DNA from: Bilabrum cf. latius
Taxonomy: Eukaryota
Reading direction: 5' to 3'
Length of the DNA: 64,000 nucleotides
Assembly (NCBI GenBank): GCA_965178125.1
Contig: OZ237735.1
Span: forward strand, 2,170,001-2,234,000
The position numbers were made by a program, and so were the translations under genes. Under the pieces are notes generated by a model. The model was not told where the DNA came from, did not search any database, and worked only from the letters and a program-made list of their open reading frames with translations. Below, in pieces: positions 1 through 60,400 of the stretch (position 1 is its first letter; every line of letters starts with the position of its first letter).

Positions 1-2685
1 AATACAGCGTTGGCGGTGCTATTGTACCCTGGGTCTGCAGACTCAGAGGAGTGCGAAATCGCGTAAGTCTCCTGGCCCTCTACCACGCCATCCGTGATGG
101 CCTGCACCTGGATCGTCCTGACTGAATTCCAAGCGATGCTGGCGTCCGCGCCGACGTCGACGGTGGGGTCAAACACGAGGATCCTGGGCGAGACGTACAG
201 ATCATCGAGCGTTGCCAGCGACGTGTCTAGCGTCACAGTCACTGTGCTGGTTGGCCTGGAGTCCAGTTGCACAGTATACGTCGCATTCGAAGCGCCCTCC
301 GTAGCACTGACAAGAGCGCTGGATATGGTAATTCCAGCGGTCTGAACATCAAAAATGCTCACACGCACGAAGGGTGAGGGCAGGAACAGCTCGGTCTGGC
401 CAACAAGCGCACTGCTCCAGCGGTTGTCAGTGCTCGTCGTATTGTGGAAGATAATGGCACTCTCCTCCGGCTCTGCCAGCTCGTCAGCCACTGCGGTGAC
501 GGTGACATCCTACCATTGGTCCCAGTTGATTGCCGTGAATGTAAGGAGAGATGGCAGCGCAGTGATCTCAGCAGCCTCGGCAGTGCCTGGGGCGATGCCT
601 ACAGACACGGTGACGGAGTTGGCGGGCTGCGTATCCAACCGGACCGAGTACGTCGCGGTGAGGGTTCCCTCAATCACGTCGACATCTGCATTTGAGATAA
701 GGACGTGGCGCTCCTTCTAGATATCATACACGTTCACGGTCACGTTGGGGCCCGGCAGCACGGCAGCGCCGTCATACTCTCCATCGGCGCTAGACACGTC
801 GTGGGTGATCACGACGGCCTGCTCTTCCACTTCACCCTCAATATCGTCGCTGATGGCCACCACATCCACAGTCACGGGAACGTCATAGTTCCCGGAGTTG
901 AACGTGATGGTGCGAGGGCTCACCCCGACCTGGCCGGCGCGGGTAACGGGAAGCACGTCAAGAGTAATTGTGACCGCAGCTGCCGGCTCAGAGGCAAGGC
1001 GGACAGTGTAGGTATCGTTGTTGCCGCCCTCCGTGACCGAAAGATCTGACCTGGACAGCAGCACGGAAGCTTTGTCGTCGTCGTAGACATCAACGTTCAC
1101 CACACCTCCGGCAGGCCGCAGGACCGCGCTGTCGTACCTCGTGTCATCACCCCGCACGGTATGCACCAGGCCCACGGTCCAGGGTGACACGGCAGCATCC
1201 ATCGGGTCGTTAGAGGCCATCACGCTCACGGTCACAGTCTGGCTGCAATTCGAGTCAGAGAAGACTGTGAACCCGCCGCTAGTGCTTATCGTCGGGCTCC
1301 CCACTGGCACGCCTCCAACAGCAGACACCCAAGAGATCACGCTAGCAGCAGTCGCGGCGTCTCCACCGGGGCCTCCCGTCATGGAAGTGACGCTAGTGTG
1401 AGTCCAGTCCACAACGATCGGCGTGGCTCCGTCTTGCGGGCAGCTCGCCACGGTGATGTCGTAGGTTACCGCCGCACCGGCTTCCACCACGGCCAGCGAA
1501 ACTTCACTGAAGTCCACTGCGGCGTGCTCGTCATCAAAGACTGCAACACCTACGGTTGGCAGTGATAGTGTGCTTGCACCGTCCACGTAGAGCGGGTCCT
1601 GTGTGAGAGTGACGGAAAAGTCCAGCTGAATGGAAGTGCTGGGCGTTACCCTATCTTCATCGTCGTCCACGGCCTGCAGCTGCACCGACTGCGGGGTGGA
1701 CCAATTGCCAGGGCCGTACGTCAGAACAATCGGCAGAGCACCCCCCGCGTCAGCCGGCAATGTAACGGAGAGCAGGCTGTCTGCCAGCGGGCTAACAGAG
1801 CTGATGGTTACCTGAACGAATGAGGCTGGCTGGCTTGCGAGAGACACGTCGAACGAGGCGGAGTCGCTCCCTCCTCCACCACCCTCCACCACGTAGACGA
1901 ATGACTATGAAACCAACACTCCGCTAGCATCATCATCCAGAAGAGTAAGGTTTACGTAAGGCGATGGAGAGAAGAGCCCAGCCGTGCCAGAGAAATTTCC
2001 ATCCGTGCTTGTTGCGGTCAACTCTACCGCCCCCGTGAGTGACGGGTCGCTTGCCGACAGCACATCATCACCTGAGGATGATATAGTGAATATTGCTGGC
2101 GTGCTCCAATTCGACGAGGTAAAGACAACAAAAGACGGGTCCAGCTGAAGCGGTGCCGAGCTGAACTCAATCGACAGCCGAGGGTGCACTGTCACTGGTG
2201 CGGCTGGAGCCTCTGACAGCACCAGTGTGAATGAATCCGTATTGCCAGGCGCGGACTCTCGAACATAAAGATGCGCATCAGACAGGATGACTGCGATGAT
2301 TAAGAAACAAGGTGTTTGGGTTGCATGTGCTTGAGCACGGCGTAGTGCCAGCAAGCTTGAGTATCGCTGCCTTACCCTATGCTGTGCTACATTCTACATT
2401 AGTTACCGAAAACCAGGACCTATCTCTCAGACAATCGCATGAGGTCCTATCCGAGGAGCTCGTGCTGAATGCTGGGCATGGCGTGCACGTGAAGTTTCCC
2501 GAACTGGGCTTGAACGAACCACTCGGGCAACTTGCGCAGGTTCCACTAAAGGTCTGGTTAAATTGACCGGGACCACAAGTGCTTGCATTACTCAAGCCCA
2601 AGAGCGAAGCTGCTACAACTGCAGCATGCCAACGCACGCTGAGGGACCGAGGCGCCCGGGCAGCCTTCTTTGACCGGCAACCCAT
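1..2685 (-). CDS. Large secreted/surface protein: signal peptide, Cys-rich (ephrin-receptor-like/GCC2-GCC3-type) module, then at least 6 tandem Calx-beta/Ig-like repeats; 3' end lies beyond the window
   Basis: ATG at 2685 (MGCRSKK...AAVVAASLLGLSNA, hydrophobic leader), then CGPGQF...CPSGSFKPSSGNFTCTPCPAFS...CDC. Intron 2291-2375. The frame then stays open to position 1, with only TAG interruptions (2377, 1905, 717, 510). Repeats of ~130 aa follow the pattern V.EG...YtV.L...P...VtV...P..L.F...NW..pQ.V.V.a..D. Confidence 0.85.
2291..2375 (-). other. Spliceosomal intron (85 nt)
   Basis: G|GTAAG donor and CGCAG| acceptor. Removal joins ECSTA(TAG)V to ILSDAHLYVRE in frame; unspliced, the upstream frame hits TGA. 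Confidence 0.85.
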
Positions 2686-38355: not shown

Positions 38356-38935
38356 TCACGCGATCTGCTGCAGCCGAACAGCGAGCCAAACAGCAGATAT
38401 CGTTGCGATAATCCCAGGAGAAGCAATGTTCCCGATGGTCATATTTCCGAAAACCGTGAACTCGATTCCGAAAAACGTAAGGGCGGCGACGAAAGATCCG
38501 AAAGTTGCAGCCAGAATCGGAATGCTATCAATGTACACAATCGATAGGACACAAAGGAGACACGTGATTGTAGTCCATACGGCAAACAGTCTTGCCAGCA
38601 GTAGACGGACTGCGCGAATCGGGAGTGATCGGCGCAAAGTGGAGTGTGAGGGAGACACCATTTCGTACAAGCAAGCTGCCACACCGAATCCGTATCTTAC
38701 CACGCTTCAGGGCAGAGACTGCGTCCATCAAGCTCTTTGTTTGAGTTGATTCAGAGTCTTCACCAGTCTTCTTGTCATTGATCAACTCAATGGCCTGCAA
38801 CGAGGCATCCTCGACCGGGCTGAAGACCTTCCCCAAAAGCAAGCCCGGCACAGCGTATCCGAGCACCACAGACAGCGTCCGAAACCCCGCCACGATCCCT
38901 AGCCAAATTTTCAATAACAAAACGGCATCCACCAT
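38356..38935 (-). CDS. ERG28: Ergosterol biosynthesis protein 28 family membrane protein (162 aa, 2 exons)
   Basis: WLGIVAGFR...LARLFAVWTTITCLLC...ATFGSFVAALTFFGIEFTVFGNM....SPGIIATISAVWL matches the ERG28 pattern. Intron 38610-38700; TGA 38356-38358. Confidence 0.9.
38610..38700 (-). other. Spliceosomal intron (91 nt) in ERG28
   Basis: G|GTAAG donor and CGCGCAG| acceptor; joins ALKR-V-RLLLARLF in frame. Confidence 0.88.
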
Positions 38936-39062
38936 TTCGTTTCTCTATTTATCCGTATGGAAGGTGCTGAGGTTACCCGAGCCGAACGAAAGTTCGTTCC
39001 CCTACTGCAACTTGATTGAAGTCCCTCATCGAAAACATTCCCAATTGACAAGCGGTTACCGA
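38936..39062. promoter_or_regulatory. Putative compact bidirectional promoter (127 bp) between ERG28 and the Asteroid-like gene
   Basis: Divergent ATGs at 38935 (-) and 39063 (+); AT-richer than the flanks; contains CAATTG at 39042. Confidence 0.5.
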
Positions 39063-41990
39063 ATGGGAGTCTAGGGACTGCTTCGTTGGGTACGATGCTA
39101 GCCTCTCCTATTCGGTGGTCCGATCGCGTTGTAGCCCGGAGATCACGTCTCGATCGATGCGGCCGCGCTTGCCCATTACCTTTGCTTGGCAAGCAGCGGC
39201 GATCTGCTGTCTATTATTGATGACGATGGCCTTGGAACGCTAGATAGGCAGTTTGGGGGTGAATATGCTGAGTTGTGCGATAGGGTACGGTGCTTCTTCT
39301 TGCGGCTACGATCAAGCGGAATCAAGTCGACCTTCGTGCTCGACGGCAACAAGTCTGCGCTGAAGCACGGGACTCATCTGTCGAGGAGAGAATCCCTTAT
39401 TTCAGAGTGCAAGCATGCACAGCTTGCCAACTCGCAGTCCCTTCTTCGAGGCCCCGTTTCCGGACGGGCGACCGCTCGCGAGGAACTGAACCGAGCGAAG
39501 CGGGGCCGCGCGCCGAAACCATTGCTGCTTGTTGAAGCCGCCGCTGTGGCACTGGCGGAATTAGGGGCCCATCTTGTTGTGTCTGCGTCTGAGGGAGACA
39601 GAGCTGTGGCGCATGTAGCAAGAAAGTACCGAAGCCGCTGCATCCTATCGAACGACAGCGACTTTCTCGTGTATGACACGGGGGCGCCACTGGTCCCGCT
39701 TGATTCCTTGAATTTTACGCCCGTGCCACCGCCCCAAGGCTGTGCCAGCGTGACAAGTAGCGGTAGCACAGATCCTGCTGCGGCAGGCGGCAAGCAAGCA
39801 CCTGGCTATGTTGATGCAGCGACTGGCACGGCGCACACATTCACCATGCATGGACTTGCTCTGCGCAGAGACAAACTCGTTTCAGTGCTGCGCGTGCCCG
39901 GTGACTCTCTCGGAGCCCTTGCTTTGCTCACTGGGTGCGACTACAGTCCCATGGCGAGCGTTGACTTGGCCTGGCTGCACGGGGCAATGCAGGCAGCCCT
40001 GCTGGACCATGCTCGCTGGGACCCGAGCAAGCGCAAGAAAACGGGAAAGCCTGCACAAACGGAAGCTAGCTCAGGTGCTTGTGCGGGGTCAGGCAGTACC
40101 GACCAAGGCGACAAACCCCCGGGCGGTGAGGTCCTGGTGGCAGGCAAGATTCCTGATAAATACCACGGCAAGATATGCAACGCAAAGCAGGCGCTGGAAC
40201 TCACCTCGGCGTATCTTCGGGCATTTTGGCCCGAAGTATGCAGCCCTGAAGAAGGAATCGTGTTGGTCGTGGCGTGCCTGTCTCGCGCGATCCGAAGGCA
40301 CGAAGCAATACACCAGTACTGGACGATGAAAAGATCAAAGCAGCGAATGGCAGCAGAGCGTGCCGCTGCCGAGAGGAGAACGGCCGGAGCGAAGCACAAA
40401 GTAAGCAAGCACAAGCATAGAGGGCGTGGCAAAAAGAGGCGCACGGAGCATAGCGCGCAAGGCGGTGGAGCTGGTACTGACAGCACCCAGCAAGCCGACC
40501 AGCCTGAGGATGCTCGTGCTGAGGCTCTCCAGGCAGCTGTGGCTGACGCAGCCCGGGCTGCAACACAGCTGCTTGTGCCAGCTGCCGGAGCTTCACAGCA
40601 ACCACTGGCAGCAACAACAACTGGTGGATAGAGCTCTGCAATGAAGCCTAATCCTGCTGCTGAGTCTGCCGATGGGTGGTTGTTGGGCACTCTCCGCGGC
40701 GTGCTCGGGCTCTTGCACAAGGTCCAGCACGAGTACACTGGATTTGGCTCTCACGATCTTCTTGGTGCAGACAGTTCGGCTAACGCTCTATCGTTGCTGT
40801 GCAAAACGTGCGACATGCACGAATCTAGAGTCTACATGTCTTTCGCGCTGCCGGCGCTGATGGAACCGGCGGGGGAACGGAGGCTAGACAAGGACAGACT
40901 GCTGGACTCTGAACGCGGCAATCTCACACCATCATCGGACATGGCTGATGAAGTGAGCTCCGTCATGCGTGCATTGGATTCAGCTGGTGCAGAGTAGAAG
41001 GAGGATGTGGGCAGCCGAGATTCTGCGACGCTAACTTCTGGTGGCTCGGTAGAGCCTTTCAACACGGTGATGGATGCCTCCAGAGCCATCATCGCGGGCT
41101 TTCCTTGGCATATGCGATCACTTGGAGAGGCACTGCTGCTTGGACCTGCAGTGCAGATGGCCGGCATGAAGCGCAGCTTGGATGCTTGTGCTGCTACTGC
41201 GTTGGCGCCAGCAAATCGCGCCCTTAGGCTGTCGCTGAAGGCTGTAGTATCGCAGCTGATCGTCAACATTCTTACTAGTTGTGATGGTAATGGCTTGAAG
41301 TCGGCCGCAGGGGGCCACATGGACCGCCCAACAACCCAGAGCTAGGATCAAACAACCACTCACAGCTCCGAGCTCGCTGAGGCGTTCCGGGCCGTAGTCC
41401 GAGTGGCATGCGACGAATTACACGATATGTGCCGAAGAGGCCAGATTCCGCAACGAAGCAGTTCAACTGGCGATATACTATTCAGAAATGCATCGGAACC
41501 AGGTTATGAATCGTCGTCTAGCTCGTCTGCGGGTAGTGGCACTCGTTGGAGACTTCCAGCCTGGTGCGTGGCGGATTCATGCGTCTGTATCGCTGTTGGC
41601 TGTCTGCGGTGGGAACAACGCAGACAGTTTGACGGTGTTACTGTGCCTGAGGCTGCGCTCGTTGGCACTGGCAGCACGACGGTAGTCCGAGCTGGTGCGG
41701 GGGTATTGCCGACGGCGTCATCGTCCAGCAGCAATAGCGGTGGCAGCGGCAGCGGCGATTTACCGGCCACGCCGGTGGCAGTTGGCACCTTGACTTCGGT
41801 GGAAGGGGCCGAGGGCTCGCAGATGGTCCCATACCGGATAGCTGGCTGCATGGACTGGCTGCCTATGCTAAGTTCGACTTCAATTGCCGAGATACTGCTA
41901 GCTGACGGAGCAGAGCCACGGGCAGCAGTGGCCCGAACAAAAACTGGCGCGGTCATTCAATAGTGGGCTGTGGCGTTTGAGTGCTTCTGA
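39063..41990 (+). CDS. ASTE1: Asteroid-like (XPG/FEN1 PIN-fold) structure-specific nuclease, 975 aa
   Basis: Starts MGV(TAG)GL. Motifs VSIDAAAL, FGGEYAELCDRVRCFFLRLRSSGIKSTFVLDG, SEGDRAVA, ILSNDSDFLVYD, LALLTGCDY. One frame joined by TAG to TGA 41988-41990. Confidence 0.85.
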
Positions 41991-48100: not shown

Positions 48101-48277
48101 GCAGCGCCTGCCGTGCCAGGCAGTGGAGATCCTTTCACTCTCGCAATCGATGCCCACGATCCTAGTAGACAGGATGATCGGCTCTACGATCCACTGGAGA
48201 GGTCCACATTTGTAGAGCAAGCACTGTCTGGGATGAGAAGGTAGCCATTTGTTGTCCGAAACAAGGTCCGGCGGTGA
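42110..48277 (+). CDS. ~2055-aa protein with N-terminal TPR repeats and two insertion-split cyclic-nucleotide-binding domains
   Basis: Frame 2 is open from ATG 42110 to TGA 48275 except for TAG. TPRs: KGYTLRTQGNLDGAIVAYSKAI, FNRGYAHDRAGHLSLALEDY, FNRATILLRLNRPGEA. CNB1: VFKQGSKSDDLLYIIVQGSV...GESFGQLAL. CNB2: FLRKLSMFEAC...VVKQGARLAGLVLIRRGRC...GDYVGE. Start is uncertain because a small 5' intron is possible. Confidence 0.85.
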
Positions 48278-48422
48278 TAGCCCAAACTCCGGATGCCAGG
48301 GCGCCGACTCAGACAGCCTGAGGGTCGCGATGTGCAAGACATCAAGTCGGAACATGACATGTGCGTACACTGAACTAAATTTGACGAATCCTGGATGAAA
48401 CAATTGATAAAATCTAAAGAAA

Positions 48423-51400
48423 TCAAACCACTGTCTGGCCATAGTCATCTGCCTCGACATGATCGTCAGGGCGTTGCTGCAGCTTCGTGATCCGAAGTAG
48501 TACCTCTGGCGACCTGTGAAGCCGTAGGAGGAGCCTGTACAGGTACATCTCATTCTCCAGATGCCGCTAGAATCGCACCTCGTTCTGAGCCAGACGGATG
48601 CCGTCACACAGCTCCAACAGATCTAGCACCTACTCCATCTCCTGGTACGGAACGCGCTCGACAGGCAAGACGAAGAGGCCGCGGATGAGTCCGCCGAGGG
48701 TCACAATGATCAGGGTGTAGACCGCAAGGATCGAGTTGCCTCCGAGAGTCTGTACCAGAATGTCGGGCGCAACCCTATCGTTGATCAGGTTGAACTCGAG
48801 ACCATCGTTGGCGATCGGACCGAACGGGTCCAAGTTGGGCCCTTGCGGTGCCATCTGCAGTGTCCACCACATCGAAGTCGTCACAACCTGGCCGGAACCC
48901 CCACCAGTTCCAGTCTGTCCAGCTGCATGCAGCTAGAGGGCAACTGCTCTCTAAAGGCCAGCTGTGAATGACACTGGGTCTGTCGTTGCAGGGTTTCGCA
49001 GAACGTACGCGTACGAATTCGGTAGGTACGTCGGCGGCCCCGCCGTAGTGGTCAGCACACCTGCGGCGTCCGCTGTGAGCAGCGAGGCGTTCAAGGACTG
49101 CACGGTCGACACAATGTTGCTCACAGCATTGTACAACGACAGGGCGTTCCCGACCGTAAGTTCCACTGATGCAGTCTTCCCAATCGTTTCGAAGGTTTGG
49201 GGCCCATCTCGCGTGAATGTGTAGTCAAGCTGTGCCACAACCCGAGGCAATGTAGAATCGGTCGCGTTGCCACTGACGTTGCCAGCGCGGCTCAAGAGCT
49301 CCACCAGCTGGCTAAGTGCAGGGGGGGCAATGTCCCAAGACTGTACAGGGTATGGCTCCATCCCAATAAATTGCGCCTGGGATCGCATTTCGCCGGAAAA
49401 TTCTAAGCTCTCTTTGCTTGTTACGTTCTCTAACAATCCGTTCCAGTACCCCTCCGTGAAATTGCTCGACACACGGCTTTGCTTTATCGTGTCTGTCTGA
49501 AACAAATCAAAGACTCCGATCTGAGCCCCGCCCGCCTCGAAACCCCGTAAGGAGAGGTCCACTGAAGCATGAAGCACGGGGTTCTGGACGAGCACAGGAT
49601 TGAGCGTGCTGAAGACAATGATGGGCGCGATGATGATGGCCAGAAGCAAGAGCACGATGAGCCACCCGTTCAAAAGCTTCATGTAGAACGGCAGCGCCTC
49701 CCTGCCGTTGAACACAGATTTCATAGACCGACGGTATGTCATGTCTACCTGCACACGGAACAAGTTTGCCTGGATTGCAGCCAGCTTTAGCCACATCCAC
49801 ACATCCATGCTTGTGCTCGCCGTGGTCCAATCTAGGATCTGCCTTAACTCGAATAGGAACGGAATTGCCGTGTATATATTGAAGATAACTCCTCGAACCC
49901 AGTGGTACCCGTGGGAAAACATCGAGTCGGTCGGCGGGGTTCTGCCATAGCCCACTTGAATCTGCTTTGCGCCCACCAGGAAATACACTACCCAGAGGCA
50001 GTAGTAAATGATCAAGGAATTGCGGTCAGAGAACTCAGAGTTGGTCTGCAGAGGAGTCTGGAAGAAGACCACCCAATGCACAGCAATTACGCTTGCCCAG
50101 TGAATCAATACCTTGAGCAGAAGCGATCTCCACAGGTACGCCAGCCTTTCGCACACGATGCAAAGAATCTGCAGGATGGCAGCGAGAACCATTCGCCCGC
50201 TGAACTGATTCTATGCCAGCTCTTGGCCGATATCGGTTCCACCTCCTGTCATGGCACCATAGAACAGCACGGTGTAGAGGAGAATAAACAGCTGTATACT
50301 GGCAGTCCAGACGTACAGGTCACGTCCAGGCTTGGTTGGCCTCATTCGCTCCTCTTTCTGCTTGCTATGCCCAGCTCCAAGAGTCCTGGCATTGGACGCA
50401 ACTGATGGCATCGTGTTCAAGGTGGTTCCGGTGGTCGTCGCCATGCCGCTGGGACCCCCACGCATATGGCGAACCACCGGGGTTGAAGCCTGGCTTGGGC
50501 CAGCCTCACCGTCAGGCTCACGAGGGGCCTGCAGAGCAGCAGGGCCTAGGCTAAGCTGAACCACAGCGGCCTAACGTCGCTGCGCTACTGCCTCACGCGG
50601 AGTCCACGCGTGCAAGATAGCTCCGTTCTGGACCCACGCCCAGGTGCCTCCCCTGTGGTCTGGGTCAACCGTCGAGAAATAGTAATCGCTCAGCCCCCAG
50701 ACAAACAGCGTCACCGAATACCACACGAACTACATCACCAAGTCGCACACGGGGATATCATGTGGATCGAAGCTGTCCCTAAAAATGCCCCTATCCGCGT
50801 CGATCCTGGAAGTGGTGCCAAGCCTGTGTGCCTCGAGATGTTCCGTCATATCCTTGACCGAGTAATGCTTGTCAACTTTCTTCACGGCGCCTGCGTCGGT
50901 GCCTTGGTCCCGAGTTTCGCTGTCGCTTTCCTCTGAGGTCACAGGACGGCAACAGCATCCACAAGACAGAACGCAGCACAGCTTGGCACAGCAGGACCTG
51001 GTGTCGGCAGGCACGCGCCTGGCCGCACCTCGGCCATGCCCTTGTCCTTGCCCGCGCATCCCAGGAGAAGCCGCATTCAAGCGATGGCTGTAGCCCGTGC
51101 GACGCCGAAGTCCAAATGATTGACCTTGAATTTCGCCTGCCGCTGCGCCTGCATCCTCAATGTCGTCCAGATCATTGTCGCTGTCATCTGACGATGTCGC
51201 CTCTGCAGCACGGGTGGGTCTGCCTGCTGCTGATCCCTAATCGCTGCTTGTCTGCACTGTATCCAACGTGGGCACAATCTGCGGGCCAGTAGTCTGCCGC
51301 GAGATGGTACCACCGGATTGGCCAGGCGACGGCGACGCTTGGCTAGTCTACACGCCGTCTTGTCCAAGGTCACCCTTTGCAGCCTGCTGGCTCCCGTCAA

Positions 51401-54400
51401 CCTGAGTAGACTCATCAACCACGTCCACAGGAGGAGACAAGTCGAGTGGAGTCATCTGAGCATCAAGCTGATGCTCATCGTTTGTTAATTCTTCGTGCTA
51501 TACGGCATCAGTGCTGTCACCAGTCAACCACGTGATCCACGATCTAGCATGATTCGACTCCGTGTCAATCCAGATTCCACGCTGTCGCAGCGTCTCTCTG
51601 TGGAGAATGACCGCCAAAAGTGACAAAAGGTCCCACAATACAGATTTCACAAAGCCTCGACCCCCATACACTGCCTGATACTTAAATAAGCCAAACAGAA
51701 CGAGCGGCTGAATCCCAGCGCCTTCGATGATGCTCGTTGGCGGCTGGTAGTCTGCTCCGCAGAACGAGGACGTCCGCAACTCCCATTCAGTGTTCGTGCT
51801 GCCCGCTCCAACCATGCAGAAGAAGGGAAGCTGTACCGCGAATTTCAGCAGCAGCACTACGATCAAATACACAATCACGAAGTCCCACTGGGCAGCGGAA
51901 GGTCTCGGGTAAGCTGCTAGATGCACGAGAACGTATGCCCCGAATGGTGCCATCGAGAGGAAATTGGCCTGGGTCACCGCAGATACAAAAAGAACGAACC
52001 CGGTTAGAGCTTTCGTGTGGCTGAGCATGACTCTGACGAAGAGGAAGCAGACGAGCACCACCTTCGACACAGCGGATTCTGGATAGGCTGCCCGGTCAAT
52101 GTCTGCGTCATTCTGCCGCTATACGAGCGTTGATATCACCGTTGATTCACCGTCGGCAATTCGTACCCGCAGCGCGCTTCTTCGCGGCGGCGTGGGCTGC
52201 GCGGCTTGCGGTTCAGGATTCGCCGGGGGTGCTGTGGGTGATGCAGCTACGCCGTCATTCCCAGTGTTTCGGAACACCGGCTCCGACCGAGAGGAGTCCT
52301 GATTGTGCGCGCGGTCTGCCGCACCAGCTGCGGCTCCTCCTGAGCCCGTTTGGTTCGAGGCTCTCGCGAAGCCCTAGCCAGTTTCGCTTTCGAGACCAGC
52401 CCCGATGCTCTATCCCGTGGAAGCACTTGCATAGGAGCGGATGGAGAGTCTGCGGACATCGGCTATCGTTGGGGCGCGGGGGCGACCCCCTCCAAAGGAA
52501 AGCATCTCAGCATCAGCACCTGACATGCCCCGCCCTCTCGCATCGCTGAATACGGAGTGGGCAGCTAACCTGCCTTCCTCGTCCTCGGCACGATCAGCAT
52601 CGGAGAGCTCTCTTTCTCTGCCGCTCTCACCCCGTGCAGATGATCCTGTCGGAGTTGTACCAGTCGTACCAAGCGCCATGGATTCACGGGCTGCCAGGCG
52701 TAAGTCCTCCAATTTGTCTCTATTAGAGTCCATCCAAACCTGCCAAGCCAAGCTGTCCTCCTCGTCATCAGACGATTCCGCGCCAACCTCTTCCTCCTCT
52801 GGTGAAAGTTGATCGGGCACGGTTTCGCCCGCGCCACAAATGCCACACACCATCCAAGACCACCATACAGGCCCATCGTCACCGACAGTGGTATCAGTCA
52901 TCCCATCATCTAGGTTGAAATCGGCCGTAGCATGCCCACAGTACGAGCAGCACCCGGCCGCAGGCTCGTCCTTCTCGCGGGTTCCAGCTCCTTCTTCAAC
53001 TCCACCCTCCTCGAGGCTGTTCTGCTGATCATCCAATCGTTTCGGTCCAGTTGCCACAGCCTCGAAAATCAGACTCAAAGCGTTCGAAAACTTGCTGTAG
53101 TCAACGATGCTCTTGGGATAGAGAATCCTGTCAACGCTGTCGTGCAGCGCATGGATAATGCTGTCCAGCATCCACACCATGAAACCGGAGCAGCCATTCT
53201 CGCAGCCGCAACTGCCCTCTTCAAGCGCTGCTATGGCGTCATCCGATCCCTCGTCGGCATCTGCGCTGTCCTGGGATGCCCGAGTAGACGATCGTCGAAT
53301 GGCACCAGCCTGTTCATTGCTTCGATCCCGACGAATCGATGCTCGCCGCTGGCTAGGTTCCTTGGCTTTTGGATACGCAGCAATTTTCTTCGCCTTCTCC
53401 TTCACATCATCACGGAGGGCAAGTCTACGGTCGACGAATGCTGCTGGGCGCTCCCCATACTGCAATGCCGACTCCAAGTTCCCAGTCGTGGCAGCGACAC
53501 CGCCATCGACCCAGCTAGACATCGTGATCTGAATAGGGTCACTGAATCGTCCCATGCCAGCTTCCGTCTGTGCGGCTACCTTGATTCGATAGTCGAAGGC
53601 CGGGTTGAGGCCTCTGACAAGCGCAACCTTCACGCCAGGCTCCGTTCTCTTTGCTACTGTGTATCCGAACATGGAGTGACTCACAGCAGTCTCGGAGTGC
53701 ACTCTCATCTTGCGCTGCCATGCCACGATGTACTGCACGTTGTCGTCATTTGTCTCACCACGTGCCTCGCTCAACTCGCTGCCGGTGGAGTTGGTCACAG
53801 AGGAGCGATCGTCATCCGCCTCCCCCTACTCGTCCTCCTCAGCTGGATCAGGCTGCTCTCGGCGAAGACCCGGGGTGTCGTCCGCGGCAGCACTCGGGCC
53901 TCTGCTAGGCGAACCACTGTTCTGATCAGGTTCAGCGGCTCTGAAGCCTTTTGGCGGAGTCCATTGCACTCGAACACTGCTATCTGGCAGCACATCAGCG
54001 CAGACATCCTGTGGCGGTGCGGGTGGCGAGAAGCTGGACCCACCCTCGTCGATGTCACCAGAGAGCAAGTTGTGCCACTTCTCCGTTTTCTGAACCAGCT
54101 TTGACAGTCGCATCCTGAGGCGTTTTTGCTGCCGTGCTAGTGATCGAGACTGATGTGCTCGCTCGTCTGCCTCCATCTCCATCCAGACCTTGCCACGGCG
54201 CTTAGCGCGTTGCTAAGACGTACTAAGATACGCCCGAACAGACATGTATGAATCCGACTGGTACAGCTGCAGCTGCATCGACACCAAAATGAGAAGGATA
54301 AATGACGTGAGAATGCCATTCTGCGCGTTAAACGGGGATGGACAGTCTCCGTTGTTCGTAAGTCCGTCAGAACTCGAACTGATAGACGCATTGCCTGCGG

Positions 54401-57400
54401 GTGCCGCGCTCGCTTGCATGGAGCGCGCACCGTGAGCAAACTGGTGCAAATCTCCATCGCTGAAGCCATCATGCAGAACCTCCATGGAAGTGAAATCGAC
54501 GAACGATGCTGCGTCTTCAAGCCAGCCATCCGCTGCAGCAGTGTCGACATCTTCTGACAAATAAACTGATGCCAATTGGCGCCCGGTCCCACCCGCTGGT
54601 CCAGTGTCATCGAAGTCGCCCAAGCTGTCGAGGGCAAGGCAAGGATCCGAGCCATTGATCGTGATGACTCTGAACTTCTGCAGTCCAATGACCGTCTGCC
54701 ACGAGAAGCAAAGGCTTGTGGTAGAACACTGCTCTGGGGGAGGGATGAATGGAGCTTGGTACACGATCTAGAGGAAGATGACCAGCATGTTGAACCATCT
54801 CAGTCCAGTGAACATCGGGTCGGATGCCAGCCTAGACCTCGTCGCTTCCGGGCTGTACATGAACCACAAAGAGAACACAAAGTAGCCGCCAATGATGATG
54901 TTCTGCTCAGACTGAATGGAAGCCACCAAGAAGAGGACCAGGATGACTAGGTTCCAGCTGAGCAGACCGATCTTCATCTGGATCCAATCCCAGGCGCTCG
55001 CCATGGTTTGAGCTAGTGCAAGGTCTTGGGTAAGATCCGCTTGCCCAGCGCCGGAATTGCTGGAGATGCCCGTGCGTACAGATCGCGCCCCGGCGGCAGA
55101 AGCTACCGGGGTATCAACTGAGTCCGAACCCCGAGCCACAGAAGCAGCTGCCGAGGCGGAAGATGCGGCCTACCCGTTCTAGATCCCTTTGCCTGCACTA
55201 CTACTGCCGGCAGCAGCTTCACTCTAGGGCTCATGATTTCCATCGCGCTCGACGTCATTCAGAAGCCTCGGTTGGAATCTTCGGCTTCTGCTTCGATGAG
55301 GGTGGTGGTGCTTTTTGGACTTCACATTGAAAGCTGCGTCGGTTCCAGTTCGCTGCGCTTGCTGCAACGCCGAAGCGATTCGATTCGCGTACTTGTCTAG
55401 CCGCTCAGTCTTTGCTTCTTGCTGGCGGTTGAAGGCTCTCGACAGAGCCCCGGCTAGCACCTCGCCGGCATACAGGTGCAGAGCAGATTGCCTGAACCGC
55501 CGGATCTGCTGGCGTTCGACACTTGCGTCCGCACGGCAAAGCCAGTCCAGGTCTTCCGTGCTGAGCACCGGGAACTCTGCTTTTATCTGCCTCCTCATGA
55601 TCTCAAGATCGAGACTGTCGCCAGCGCTGTCCGTGTCTTGGCGACGGACCGACCCAGGAAGCAAGCTCGCCGACTCGGAGTCGGCAATGGTATCGCCGCT
55701 CTTTGAGTCGTCGTCTGCAGCACTCTGCGACCGTTGCATTGCCTACGATCTCGCGCTCTCCTACTCGATACGAGAGAAACCTGCCGTAAGCTGCAGCAGA
55801 GCCTCTGCTGCCCTTTGATCCGTCCACCATTGGCGCTTCGTGAGGCTGGCGATGAGCAGTGCAATGAAATCCGGCAAGAGCTGAAGCCCGGTCACAGTTT
55901 CGCCGACCCCAAAGTAGTACTGCAGGCTTGCGTCTTGAGACCACGGCCACACAGTGTTTCTAGTCGAGTGCAAGAACGGGGGCCAGCCAACTGTAGCAAT
56001 GTAGCGAATAGTAATCATTACAGCAAGCATCGTTGTGAGAGTAGGCCATAGCCATGACCGCACAACGCCTTGGTTCGCCGCCAGATGCTATTGCACAGCA
56101 GCCTTGGCAAAGCTCTGAGCCGGAGACGCAGGCTTGTCATCATCGTCATCTGCTGATGTCACATTCCGGTGGTGGCTCTTTTGAAGCTTTCTCTTCGTGG
56201 CGGGTTTGAACAGATGTGCAGCTGCCTTGTCATCACCCGCGACAAGCAGTGCAAACACTGCCATTAGCAAAAGTATGACGGACCAGATATCAAGGTGGCA
56301 GAACGCGGCCACCACAAGCGCTACCGCGGTCAAATCGTTAAAAACCCGCGCTGAATGACGCTGCAAAGCTTTTCGGAGTCCTTGCCACAAGGACACCTTG
56401 TTGCGATTCAAACGGGCTCGCAGCGCAAGAACGTGCTTTCCGGCGGCCAGAATTGCGCGGTCTCTGGCGCATAGGCCTTGGCGAAACTAGTAGCTGGAAG
56501 CAGCCGCCGATATTCCCTACTGTTGCGAATCAATGTCCTCGACGGCTTCGCTCACGCTGCGGCGCAGCTTTGGGCTACCGTCGAGTAGCGCCGCAATCGC
56601 AGCAGCAGATTCGCTTCCATCTGCAGCGACGAGACGATGCAGAATCGGGGCGTTGTACATAACATCGTACCACGCAGCTAGGCCCAACACGAGTCTAGGA
56701 TCTGCAAGGTCGATGTCCGAATCCTCTGTGATCTGAATGGGCGGCAGCGACTCTTTGGGGGGCAAAGGTCCGTAGTACGACTGCACAGAGGATGACACAA
56801 ACCGGCTTGGTGTGATCACATTCGCTCTTGACGTCCCGGCATCAGGGTTCTGTCGCGTTGAATCCGGCGAATCGCCCGCCGTCGCTGCCGCAGCAGCACC
56901 ACCTGTAGATTCTGGGGAAGATGTCGGGCTCCTCCGTTTCGAGTCTGCGCCTGTTGGGCTCCCAGTGCGTCTGGCCGGCGTGCTACTATCCTTTCTATCT
57001 TGTGTGGAATCCGCTGAACCGCTCGTTCCAGACCCTCCAAGCGCCCTGAGACGAATTCGCTGTATCCGTTGCTCCCCGACGCGACGAAGCAGCTCGACAG
57101 CCGCCCGTTCATGGGACCGCACAGAAACTTCGGTCTCATCTACTAGTCGCTCCATAGCAAGCGCATCCAACGAGCCTGTGCGTTCCAGCTCTCGAAGCTC
57201 CATTGATTCCGCTCTCATTACGTACGATTCGTAGTCATGCGACCAACGCTGCAGGATGCATGCGGCTATTATCACGGCATAACCGACTAGTAGCGACCAC
57301 ATATCATCATAGGAGATCTTGGAGGGGTCTCCGCTTTGCCCGTTGAACTTCGACTCGATGCGGTAAAATCCAATCCACTAGGTCTCATCGCTCTCCCCGT

Positions 57401-60400
57401 ACCAAGTGCCGCTACGGAAGACCTGGAACTGGTAGGCAAAGCTTAGTAGGCACATTATAACACCATACAGAATCACAAGCAGCCAAACGTCCCTGAACGG
57501 GCGTCGTGGTGCTGACGCAATGCGCTCTCGACGCAATAGCTGTGGCATGTAGCCTGCCCTGTAAGCTGAGATAGGTGCTGGAGGCAGGCGCACCGATGAA
57601 GCGGCGTGTCGCAGCAGATGCTCGGTTGCTGCCTCGATCCCTGAGGTAGCTCCATGGCCAGCTGCAAAAGCACCTTCTAGTCTCCTTGCTGCTGCACGAC
57701 GTGCCGCGGCTGCTGACGACCTGCTGCCGTCTGAACCGCTGCTGGAGCCTCCTCCGCTCTCCGACTTGTCATCAAGAGCGACATATCCGTCAAAACCTGG
57801 CTGCACACCCTCCTATTCCGCAATCTTGCGGGCTGCGTGTTGCATATCTGCGTCAATTTTCGCGAACATCGTCACACTGGATCCGGTGCGGGCACGCTGC
57901 CTACCCGTCTCGGCAGCCAGAGTATCAGCAAAGAACTGCACCAGAACTGAGGTAAGGCTCCGACTCGCTCGGAGCTGCTTGCGCCGACGGTAGCCACGAA
58001 TTCGACCGGTGGGTCCCGATGCTGCCCCACTGCCATCCTCGTCATCAGAGGAGGCGTTAGCCTGTTCCCACACCCTAGCAGGGTCCGGCAGTTCGTCAAC
58101 TAGGCGACGAATCTGCCTGGCTGGCATCCCACCTATTTGAACGGCACGTTCAACGGTCATTGCAGACATCTAGCTACGTCGCCTGTCTGTGACGTCAGCA
58201 TCGGACACATCTTGGTCTTGCTGCGTGCTGCACAACCAGCAGCAGCAGCAGAGGCACCGACAAGTCAGCACGTAGTTCAAGCAGGACGTATCAAGTCCAG
58301 CAGGGTCCTACCGATACGTCATGACTGCGGCAAAGATTGTGGATCCTACCGCCAGCATAGTTCCTGTCACAGTGTCTTGAAGAGTCGCAACGACAAATGC
58401 CAACAGGAGCGTCAGCTTTCCGGAGTGATAGAACGCGACTTTGCGGTACCAGTCATACGCGCTGTACAAGAAACGCATGCAAGGATCGTCCGCCCTGAGC
58501 ACATCCTCGTCGTTTTCGATCTGCAGGGTGGCCTCCTGGTCGACTTGCCCGACAGAGTTAGAGGAGCCAGGAGTGAGGCTAGAGGTATCGTACAGGCTGC
58601 TCCGGATCGCAACTCCTCTCCGGCCACGAACGGAGGCAGAAACGGAGCCCGAAGCTCGAGCAGCCCTGACGAACTCTTCCTTGCGGGCAAGCTGAGTCGC
58701 CAAGTCGCTCAAGAAACCTATCTGAACGACCGTTAGCAGCAGCATGGCGAACGAGTCGAGCAACGACACATACAGATCACCAGAGTAGTTGTCGTCCACG
58801 TATCGTTCCAAACCCAATTCCCTGACGGTCAGGAACCGCTGTAGGTCTAGCTGCTTCCAGAAACGGTCTTCAAACCAATTTGCAAGCCCACCGAACTAGA
58901 AAACGTACCGCGCGATCAAATACCCGGCCTAGATTGCGGCCATCACAGTCATGAGGTACATAATCGCTGCAGTCGCAGAACTGCGCTTGATCGGCGCTCG
59001 GACTCCCATCGACAGGTGGGTCCCCATGAGGACAAACAGCATGATCAGTGTCACCAATCCAAGGCAGTCTGGCTCTGGAAGTAAAGATAAGCAGAAGTAG
59101 ACAGCATAGCAAAGCCAAACGCCGTACCTCTGCATAGTCTTTGCTACAAATGTACCGCCGCCGGCCAGCCATTCGTACCTTGCAGTGAGTTCCTCCAGCT
59201 GTTGAGAGTAGACACCTTCTTGCTCGTCAATGTACTGTGGAAGCTGGATCATGCTAAACACGAGGATGATTCCATTCGATACGAACGTGGTCCTCCACAA
59301 CGGACTGCTGTTTGGCCCCACGACCAGCCCGACCACCCACGGAGGCGTGTTTGCCGTCGCGGGGTTGATGTGGTGCGCAGCCACGTGCCAAATGAACAGG
59401 AACGTTATCGCCAGGCTCGTATAGATCACCAGCCAGCGCCAGTAGTCTCTTCTCAGACTGCTTGACACGAAGAAGACGATAAAGATGATCACATACCCCG
59501 TGTGAATCAAGTCTACGTGCGAAAGTCCCAGCACGTACAGGACCGTGAGAGCGACAACAAACGCGTAACCTCGCAACAGGACCAGCGCCGCTGCCACGAG
59601 TGAGTACAGGCTGTACGGCCCAGGTCCACATGAAATGTCCCAACAGGTGTTGTAGCGGAAGTTGCCATGCGTTGAACTTCCGGCCGATGACTCTGTCTCC
59701 GTTGTGGAGTACGAACGCAGGGCACGCTGTGGTTTCGCTGGACTTGGGTGATTCCTGTCGCCGCTTCGCTGTCCAATCAGTGAGCTTGAAAATACAGACA
59801 TTCTCTTTCCTGCGAAAACCCACGACGAAGAGAATGCATGGCGACGATGAAACGTAGCCAGAAGTCAGTGATGGTCTTGTGCGAGTTCATCGTGTCTATC
59901 TCACCTCTTGTAGCCTTTGGAGAAGGTGCTGGGCTATCTGCGAGCAGAGATAAGGATGAGGGGCACACATGGGCGGTAGGGGGGTAAATTCACGAGGGTA
60001 TGAATATGATAAGGTAGATGGGGATTAGCTCACTGACGCTGCTGTTGTCGAGCGGATTGGCCGCAGGGCCGATCTCATCGTCCGAAACGCCCACAGCGGA
60101 CGATAACACACCGCCTCTGTCGGATTTTGAAGCATGCGGCGCATCGTTGTTCGGTGCAACCAGAGCGTGCAAGGGGCTATGAGGCCCTTGGCCAGAAAGA
60201 CCTCCGAAATCCTACTCTGCATCGTCGTGCTGCCCAGCAGACATCCTGTCGGCTTCTCGCGCGGACTGCTGCAGCAGCGTGACCTTGTGGTAGAGAGCCA
60301 AGATCATGAGCAAAGCGAAATTCAGCAAGAGCCGGACGACCGGTCGTAGCAGAGGTACCATACCGCACAACTACCAGACCACATCAAACTCGTCCCGGAT

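Follow-up and report, generated by a model that had tools for sequence, protein, structure and literature searches.

A fibronectin type III domain embedded in a Piezo homologue of Bilabrum cf. latius and in related stramenopile proteins

Background

What would a folded domain do in the part of a Piezo channel where animal Piezos carry their intracellular gating elements? The question is raised by a 64,000 nt stretch of DNA from Bilabrum cf. latius (GCA_965178125.1, contig OZ237735.1, forward strand 2,170,001-2,234,000; hereafter the window, to which all coordinates refer), in which the original prediction had placed a fibronectin type III (FN3) domain inside a Piezo channel gene, at positions 53520..54026. 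Our understanding of how Piezo channels work rests on the animal channels, in which force transmission and the shaping of conductance are ascribed to the beam, plug and latch below the pore. We have therefore asked whether the segment is an FN3 domain, whether its host is a Piezo protein, where in the channel the domain would be located, which other Piezo proteins share it, and which of the possible roles is best compatible with the evidence.

Results and discussion

Identity and fold of the FN3 domain

The host open reading frame (ORF), which is continuous when TAG is read as a sense codon (see below), and the parts of the domain are located as follows:

48423..59801, minus strand: Piezo ORF P0001, 3792 codons with 30 in-frame TAG codons, stop codon TGA
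53952..54026, minus strand: FN3 strands A-B (residues 1926-1950) with the PPxPP start and the B-strand Trp1947, from Pfam, alignment and AlphaFold2
53742..53951, minus strand: acidic low-complexity insert in the B-C loop (residues 1951-2020) with one TAG at 53826-53828, from the predicted local distance difference test (pLDDT) scores, composition and length comparison
53520..53741, minus strand: FN3 strands C-G (residues 2021-2094), from positions 24-83 of the Pfam fn3 profile, AlphaFold2 and fold matches

Translation of minus-strand positions 53400-54230 gives the peptide quoted in the original prediction, from PPAPPQDVCADVLPDSSVRVQWTPP through VQYIVAWQ to FSDPIQIT, and since residues 1926-2094 of the ORF map precisely to 53520-54026, the coordinates given there are exact. 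When the whole protein was searched, the Pfam fn3 profile (PF00041) matched residues 2016-2092 with 25.0 bits (E 2.3e-5), which just equals the cut-off of 25 bits, while on the isolated 277-residue segment it scored 33.4 bits (E 5.2e-8, versus the cut-off of 25) in two stretches, because the insert interrupts the domain. A first AlphaFold2 model, based on a 13-row alignment of homologous segments, consists of a transmembrane (TM) helix, a 65-residue helix and a seven-strand beta-sandwich (strands at residues 1931-1937, 1943-1948, 2023-2031, 2048-2052, 2059-2062, 2070-2079 and 2082-2086/2090-2093), with block-mean pLDDT values of ~81-93 for most of the sandwich and 60 for the block between strands C and C'. 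A Foldseek comparison of this fold with the PDB yielded 126 matches at E<=0.001 (best E 4.4e-6, target-normalised TM-score up to 0.79), and among the matches listed the top rows were FN3 or cytokine-receptor FN3-type domains, such as those of neogenin, Robo3, LAR and integrin beta-4. A second AlphaFold2 model covered residues 1600-2110 (THU7, helix and FN3) and was based on a 20-row alignment; its VIA-align match list contained FN3 domains throughout, including the intracellular FN3 domains of titin and twitchin, with single FN3 domains of LAR and PTPRZ aligned at Z 13.7 and a root-mean-square deviation of 2.1-2.6 Å over 98 residues. Multi-FN3 proteins were also matched by the segment in a phmmer search of 1.84 billion representative sequences.

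The hallmarks of FN3 domains are a proline-rich start, a Trp in strand B, a Tyr in strand C, the pattern Tyr-x-hydrophobic-x-Val-x-Ala in strand F and Gly-x-Gly before strand G. In P0001 the core residues are found as PPAPP, W1947, Y2024, DYRIKVAA and AGMG, and these columns are invariant or nearly so both in 13 and in 18 homologues, with P2116, P2117, P2120, W2137, V2201, A2203, G2208 and G2210 (numbering of P0018) being invariant in 18 full-length sequences. As the Pfam score, the AlphaFold2 sandwich and the Foldseek and VIA-align matches all agree, the identification of the segment as a genuine FN3 domain is secure, and the domain assignment of the original prediction came through both profile and structure comparison.

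The host protein is a Piezo homologue

Three Pfam profiles of Piezo proteins were found in the complete ORF, in the canonical Piezo order of THU8, THU9-anchor and cap/pore:

51570..52025, minus strand: THU8 (THU_Piezo1, PF23188, residues 2593-2744, E 1.2e-15), aligned to the unit before THU9 in solved chains
49608..50324, minus strand: THU9 and anchor (Piezo_THU9_anchor, PF24874, residues 3160-3398, E 4.2e-54), also from phmmer
48483..49397, minus strand: region of the cap, inner helix and C-terminal domain (Piezo_cap, PF12166, residues 3469-3773, E 3e-34), also from phmmer

In phmmer searches against solved structures, residues 3169-3781 aligned with the region from THU9 to the C-terminus of Piezo chains (E 2.2e-32), and residues 2590-2746 aligned weakly with the helical unit preceding THU9. 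The anchor region of Piezo proteins contains the conserved motif PF(X2)E(X6)W, which is present in the translation of P0001 as PFLFELRQILDW and is aligned with IPFLYELRTILDW of a solved Piezo chain. By its sequence P0001 is thus a Piezo homologue, and it is predicted from family membership to form a trimeric mechanically gated cation channel. With THU8, THU9 and the pore encoded downstream of the FN3 domain in the same ORF, the domain is embedded in a Piezo protein and precedes its last TM units, both as originally predicted.

Position of the FN3 domain in the channel

Upstream of the FN3 domain the models and the hydropathy scan define two further elements:

54258..54323, minus strand: TM helix (residues 1827-1848), the last hydrophobic segment before a soluble linker and probably TM28 of THU7, from Kyte-Doolittle hydropathy, AlphaFold2 and a weak hhalign match to mussel Piezo P0007
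54060..54254, minus strand: single helix of 65 residues (residues 1850-1914), beam-like and rich in Arg and Lys, in both AlphaFold2 models

The long helix continues straight from the last TM helix and has block-mean pLDDT values of 95-98, going down to 77 at its last turns (residues 25-89 of the first model); it is found again at residues 251-314 of the second model, and would measure ~97 Å if straight. The FN3 domain starts ~12 residues past the end of this helix. As the Kyte-Doolittle scan contained no segment of >=1.5 between residues 1843 and 2571, the domain is placed in a soluble linker of ~730 residues between the TM block and THU8, and since no hydrophobic segment separates it from THU8, the best inference for its location is the cytoplasm, in line with the original prediction. 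A PH domain directly following the FN3 domain in the oomycete relatives P0046 and P0052 (see below) fits with the cytosolic side.

For animal Piezos, a PEZO-1 study (PMC12951647) describes the beam as a helix of ~88 Å which links TM28 to TM29 beneath the pore, with a plug and latch that modulate conductance, while the domain boundaries for human PIEZO1 given in PMC12308237 run from THU7 (1117-1304) and the beam (1305-1367) via the central plug, lateral plug, latch and clasp to THU8 (1657-1802), all on the intracellular side. Upstream of its THU8, the FN3-less Piezo P0011 contains a match to the TM-helix part of our profile as well. From this order of elements we infer, on good grounds, that the FN3 domain follows a beam, is cytoplasmic and occupies the plug/latch site; the beam-resembling segment noted in the original prediction is then the 65-residue helix, which by its position would be the beam.

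Other Piezo proteins with the same architecture

A search with the C-terminal core of P0001 identified P0002 (40% identity), P0003 and P0004 as close relatives, next to more distant Piezos from Stentor, mussel and Leptomonas, and alignment of P0002, P0003 and P0004 showed the same helix-FN3 block with a long insert in the same loop. An exhaustive phmmer search with residues 1826-2110 gave 44 matches at E<=0.001, of which 12 cover the TM-helix and/or FN3 parts (11 in one or two stretches, P0024 in three) and the remainder are multi-FN3 proteins; seven of the 12 are longer than 1,000 residues. Mostly generic multi-FN3 proteins were obtained in an alignment-based search for longer proteins (covered 505-2000 residues), and a search of the ESM Atlas with part of P0046 gave no usable match. 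Exact look-up identified P0024 as the hypothetical protein FNF28_05732 of Cafeteria roenbergensis (KAA0159725.1) and P0052 as a protein of Aphanomyces invadans.

When the helix-FN3-PH region of Aphanomyces was used as query, 28 proteins were found, and 19 of these contain both Piezo Pfam domains and PF00041, with the remainder being two fragments or chimeras and seven animal FN3 proteins. The 19 oomycete FN3-Piezos come from Aphanomyces, Achlya, Saprolegnia, Thraustotheca, Pythium oligandrum and Phytophthora ramorum (named examples are SPRG_20361 and SPRG_03633 of Saprolegnia parasitica, ACHHYP_07195 of Achlya hypogyna, Poli38472_000268 of Pythium oligandrum, PRNP1_014867 of Phytophthora ramorum, and proteins of Aphanomyces spp.), and many of the oomycete FN3-Piezos are labelled "Fibronectin type-III domain-containing protein" in UniRef. 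A contiguous TM-helix-FN3 profile can be aligned along its entire length with P0002, P0003, P0004, P0018, P0024, P0032 and the oomycete proteins, and the block is also present in metagenome proteins. Pfam fn3 scores are 54.5 bits for P0039, 61.3 bits for P0046 and 45.7 bits for P0052, in which the domain is uninterrupted, and 21.1 and 25.3 bits for the insert-bearing P0018 and P0032, respectively.

The oomycete Piezos have their uninterrupted FN3 domain followed by the PH domain in the THU7-THU8 linker (residues 895-1121 of P0046 and 1584-1806 of P0052), and the Saprolegniales have at least two FN3-PH Piezo paralogues. A profile of the oomycete PH region matched P0052, P0046 and P0039 (E 1e-41 to 1e-78) and gave nothing in P0001-P0004, P0018, P0024 and P0032; likewise, Pfam found no PH domain in the window protein or its insert-bearing relatives.

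A phylogenetic tree was made from the C-terminal core with the FN3 columns excluded (27 rows, 578 columns, IQ-TREE quick search), leaving out P0005, P0006, P0078, P0081 and P0083 with too short a C-terminal match. All 22 FN3-bearing Piezos are on one side of a single branch (SH-aLRT 99), and the window protein groups with P0002, P0003 and Cafeteria P0024 (SH-aLRT 100). The FN3-Piezo is therefore an inherited trait of a stramenopile clade, comprising the oomycetes, Cafeteria, the window organism and relatives, and not an accident of one gene. The fusion is common in stramenopile database entries (the 19 of 28 matches plus Cafeteria), and the uniqueness that the original prediction had implied does not hold. 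Its statement that animal and plant Piezos lack FN3 agrees with the small sample of non-stramenopile Piezos, for which Pfam fn3 was not listed (mussel P0007, P0009, Stentor P0006 and P0005, Leptomonas P0008, P0010 and P0011); this sample contains no plant Piezos.

The acidic insert in the B-C loop

The ~70-residue acidic insert of the original prediction was recovered as well. In P0001 there are 76 residues between the B-strand Trp1947 and the C-strand Tyr2024, versus 12 in 11/11 oomycete orthologues, so that the insert adds ~64 residues. It contains 19 acidic and 7 basic residues, half of it consists of Ser, Thr, Pro, Gly or Ala, and with pLDDT values below 50 it is predicted to be disordered. 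Long inserts are found at the same loop in P0002, P0003, P0004, P0024 and P0032 (64-81 residues in the subclade of the window protein), while the sequence of the insert varies between relatives and is not conserved.

We also considered the insert as an intron, and rejected this since its start lacks a GTRAG donor and relatives retain it in frame. GTRAG occurs on the coding strand at 53758 and 53684 alone, where splicing would delete conserved FN3 strands and not the insert, and the entire insert is retained in frame in P0060, a protein piece of 761 residues with 94% identity to P0001.

Possible function and alternative explanations

The best explanation overall, which we regard as somewhat on the probable side, is that the FN3 domain in the THU7-THU8 linker is a clade trait which would put a folded module in a place relevant to gating. 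The fold, the host family, the order of the elements and the conservation throughout the clade are demonstrated above; the role of the domain is a proposal for all these proteins. Based on the architecture of the solved animal Piezos, the linker would be cytoplasmic, and the C-terminal end of the beam would point toward the pore axis. If the 65-residue helix behaves like a beam, one FN3 domain per subunit would be found near the cytoplasmic mouth of the pore, beneath the exit, which in animal Piezo1 is the site of the central plug, lateral plug and latch. Being a rigid folded module, the domain could attach either to the cytoplasmic face of the channel itself or to a partner in the cytosol, and both could tune gating or permeation. 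In oomycetes, the PH domain following FN3 suggests a link to inner-leaflet lipids, while the subclade of the window protein may instead display an acidic disordered loop of 64-81 residues from the B-C loop. We favour a folded docking module because the placement at the plug/latch site is the informative part; the conserved residues are those of an ordinary FN3 core, which argues for a conserved fold and does not reveal a binding surface. A bolder version, which we consider a long shot, would have the FN3 domain of stramenopile Piezos functionally replace the plug and latch of the animal channels, with three FN3 domains forming a folded cytoplasmic gate or vestibule below the pore, the long acidic B-C loop of the Cafeteria-type subclade (with the window protein) acting as tethered plug or cation funnel, and the oomycete PH domain making the gate responsive to phosphoinositides of the inner leaflet. 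If true, intracellular gating of Piezo channels would have a second design, of independent origin.

Several observations weigh against this explanation or narrow it. The identity of the long helix with the beam derives from its position and length and not from sequence homology: a profile of the TM segment plus helix retrieved just chance helical matches from the solved structures and not a single Piezo chain at E<=10, and its sole hhalign match in mussel Piezo P0007 was weak (residues 1273-1313, E 0.031, probability 1.6%), although this region is located inside Pfam Piezo_TM25-28 (1146-1359) and ahead of THU8 (1628-1746). The proposed placement relative to the pore is likewise taken from the solved animal Piezo architecture, and topology was judged by a Kyte-Doolittle hydropathy scan. 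Furthermore, in the relatives with long inserts the Pfam fn3 score does not exceed the threshold, with 14.5 bits for P0002 and no match at E<=0.1 for P0004 and P0024, and their FN3 status follows from alignment to the window protein and to clearer homologues. Finally, the sampling for the tree was biased, since the FN3-bearing rows were gathered with FN3-containing queries and there were only five FN3-less rows, and a single origin of the FN3 domain is therefore supported within the sampled rows and not for its full distribution.

The original prediction had suggested that the domain is a built-in tether or spring which couples the channel to the cytoskeleton, allowing force-from-filament gating. 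Cytoplasmic FN3 domains of cytoskeleton-linked proteins are indeed among the structural matches (integrin beta-4 at Foldseek rank 8, titin and twitchin in VIA-align), and a cytoplasmic linker of PIEZO2 is reported as necessary for force-from-filament gating in a preprint (bioRxiv 10.1101/2021.01.13.426495); this is, however, a different linker from the one bearing FN3. There is no partner or binding motif to point to, and no specific support for a tether; the residues conserved in the clade form the ordinary FN3 core with no obvious surface patch, a lone FN3 domain makes a poor spring, and the likely site of the domain is the pore-proximal end of the beam, under the pore, and not the periphery of the blade. 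Taken together, we consider a tether unlikely. The FN3 domain could also serve mainly as a scaffold for the acidic disordered B-C loop, which it would hold at the ion exit; there the loop would work as a cation funnel or tethered plug, an independent version of the animal plug. The charge and predicted disorder of the insert are compatible with this, as are its recurrence at the same site in five relatives and the placement of the domain at the Piezo1 plug site according to the boundaries given in PMC12308237, but the 11 oomycete orthologues all have the short loop of 12 residues, so that a plug-like loop cannot explain the conservation of the FN3 domain itself, and the sequence of the insert differs among relatives. 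This makes it a distinctly doubtful explanation.

An extracellular FN3 domain, in a divergent Piezo with a topology different from the animal channels, would agree with the majority of the FN3 structural matches being ectodomains, and with the hydropathy scan showing fewer clear N-terminal TM segments than a 38-TM Piezo should have. This is very improbable, however, given that no hydrophobic segment is found between FN3 and THU8, the N-terminus of which is cytoplasmic in the solved Piezos, that the helix flanking the domain is rich in Arg and Lys, and that the domain adjoins a PH domain in oomycete orthologues. We find it scarcely credible that the segment, or just its insert, is intronic, belongs to a separate transcript or stems from a chimeric assembly. 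While the gene seems to have short introns farther upstream, the reading frame is continuous over 3792 codons, independent genomes (Cafeteria and at least 11 oomycetes) show the elements in the same order, contigs of four public runs (probably DNA) are collinear with positions 52500-55500 without joints or differences, and neither the GTRAG motifs nor the in-frame insert of P0060 described above are consistent with its removal.

Genetic code, gene structure and neighbouring genes

With the standard or bacterial genetic code the Piezo region is split into short ORFs, and the frame of 3792 codons is open solely with TAG as a sense codon. Reading TAA as sense as well left the ends of 15/17 long ORFs unchanged, including that of the Piezo ORF. 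TAG is used as a sense codon throughout the window, whereas TGA, and apparently also TAA, still terminate ORFs. The largest ORF of the window has 7082 codons with 56 TAGs (9238-30486, plus strand). Judged from the alignments, Gln is the most likely meaning of TAG: a TAG column has Gln in 12/12 homologues, other TAG columns are mostly Gln, and P0060 has Gln at six of eight TAG positions, although the sequence of P0060 could already be the product of a recoded translation table. With Cafeteria as the nearest named relative on the basis of the Piezo protein, the source organism is probably a bigyran stramenopile, and may be one with UAG as Gln codon. A trypanosomatid source, at first suggested by the GC skew resembling that of a strand switch, was discarded in view of Cafeteria and the oomycetes as nearest relatives. 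No report of nuclear UAG reassignment in stramenopiles was found in our literature search, and a tRNA gene reading TAG was not found in the window, which contains no tRNA gene at all. Two short fragments, P0012 (106 residues) and P0014 (59 residues), are 75-78% identical to the same Piezo region for which the P0060 piece is 94% identical; they may represent ORFs that standard gene calling truncated at TAG codons in a related recoded species.

The Piezo gene probably extends upstream of P0001:

59990..61900, minus strand: upstream ORF of 636 residues with N-terminal helical units, probably of the same gene (BLASTP match to residues 604-744 of P0003, E 1e-9)
60033-59938, minus strand: candidate intron 1, 96 nt, GT..AG
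59937-59905, minus strand: candidate exon of 33 nt between the two candidate introns
59904-59810, minus strand: candidate intron 2, 95 nt, GT..AG

Since the two GT..AG intervals join the upstream ORF in frame with the Piezo ORF, the full protein is probably ~4,400 residues long, and the genome would have short introns. At its other end the Piezo gene converges with a plus-strand ORF of 2055 codons for a TPR/cNMP-binding protein, with the two genes ending 145 bases apart (48277-48423), where the cumulative GC skew also turns over. An open-ended ORF at 3-2399 (minus strand) has repeated units with sub-threshold matches to Calx-beta (24.5 bits) and fn3_6, and may encode a repetitive surface or adhesion-type protein, and the ORF of 1066 residues at 38790-41990 (plus strand) has a borderline match to the XPG_I_2 nuclease domain (24.1 bits versus a cut-off of 24.2).

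Novelty and significance

The FN3-Piezo architecture is present, and automatically labelled as such, in many public oomycete entries, and the gene in the window therefore adds a member and not a novel architecture. The gain from the window alone is modest: one further FN3-Piezo, from an organism with an unusual genetic code. With regard to described Piezos, the fusion is common as far as public entries are concerned, but no paper describing FN3 in Piezo was found in the open-access PubMed Central (PMC) and bioRxiv literature, and the accessible part of a review on oomycete calcium signalling (PMC4820453) only counts Piezo homologues. So far as searched, the lineage-wide FN3 pattern and its position at the plug-latch site appear to be unreported in print. 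A eukaryotic lineage which includes major pathogens of plants and fish as well as abundant marine grazers bears a folded FN3 domain at this site, together with a PH domain or an acidic loop. This lineage represents a natural experiment on the plug/latch site, with a compact domain that is amenable to deletion or swapping.

Comparison with known systems

The nearest relatives of the window protein, Cafeteria P0024 and P0002 and P0003, have the same FN3 domain with a B-C insert of 64-81 residues, and the C-terminal cores of P0002 and P0003 are 38-40% identical to that of P0001 by BLASTP and up to 45% in the tree alignment. Unlike the window protein, these three apparently use the standard code and are longer (4653-5734 residues), and as Pfam calls no FN3 domain at threshold in them, the name of the Cafeteria entry reflects its Piezo cap alone. 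The oomycete FN3-Piezos share with the window protein the same block of TM segment, 65-residue helix and FN3 domain between THU7 and THU8, the same Piezo core and membership of one clade, but their FN3 domain is uninterrupted (45-61 bits in Pfam), several of them carry a PH domain after it, and the segment is ~21-27% identical to that of the window protein.

Animal PIEZO1 (PMC12308237, PMC12951647) resembles the window protein in having a long cytoplasmic helix right after the last TM segment of THU7, followed by a long linker before THU8, and its plug and latch follow the beam where the window protein has its FN3 domain. Plug and latch of the animal channels are short segments with partial disorder and contain no FN3, and no sequence similarity to the window protein was detected for them.

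The FN3 domains of integrin beta-4, titin and twitchin are intracellular, belong to cytoskeleton-linked proteins and match the window domain in structure. In integrin beta-4 the FN3 domains function in plectin binding, and in titin and twitchin they contribute to the scaffolding of the sarcomere. Their likeness to the FN3 domain of the Piezo proteins is one of fold, with an analogy of compartment, and does not extend to a specific sequence relationship.

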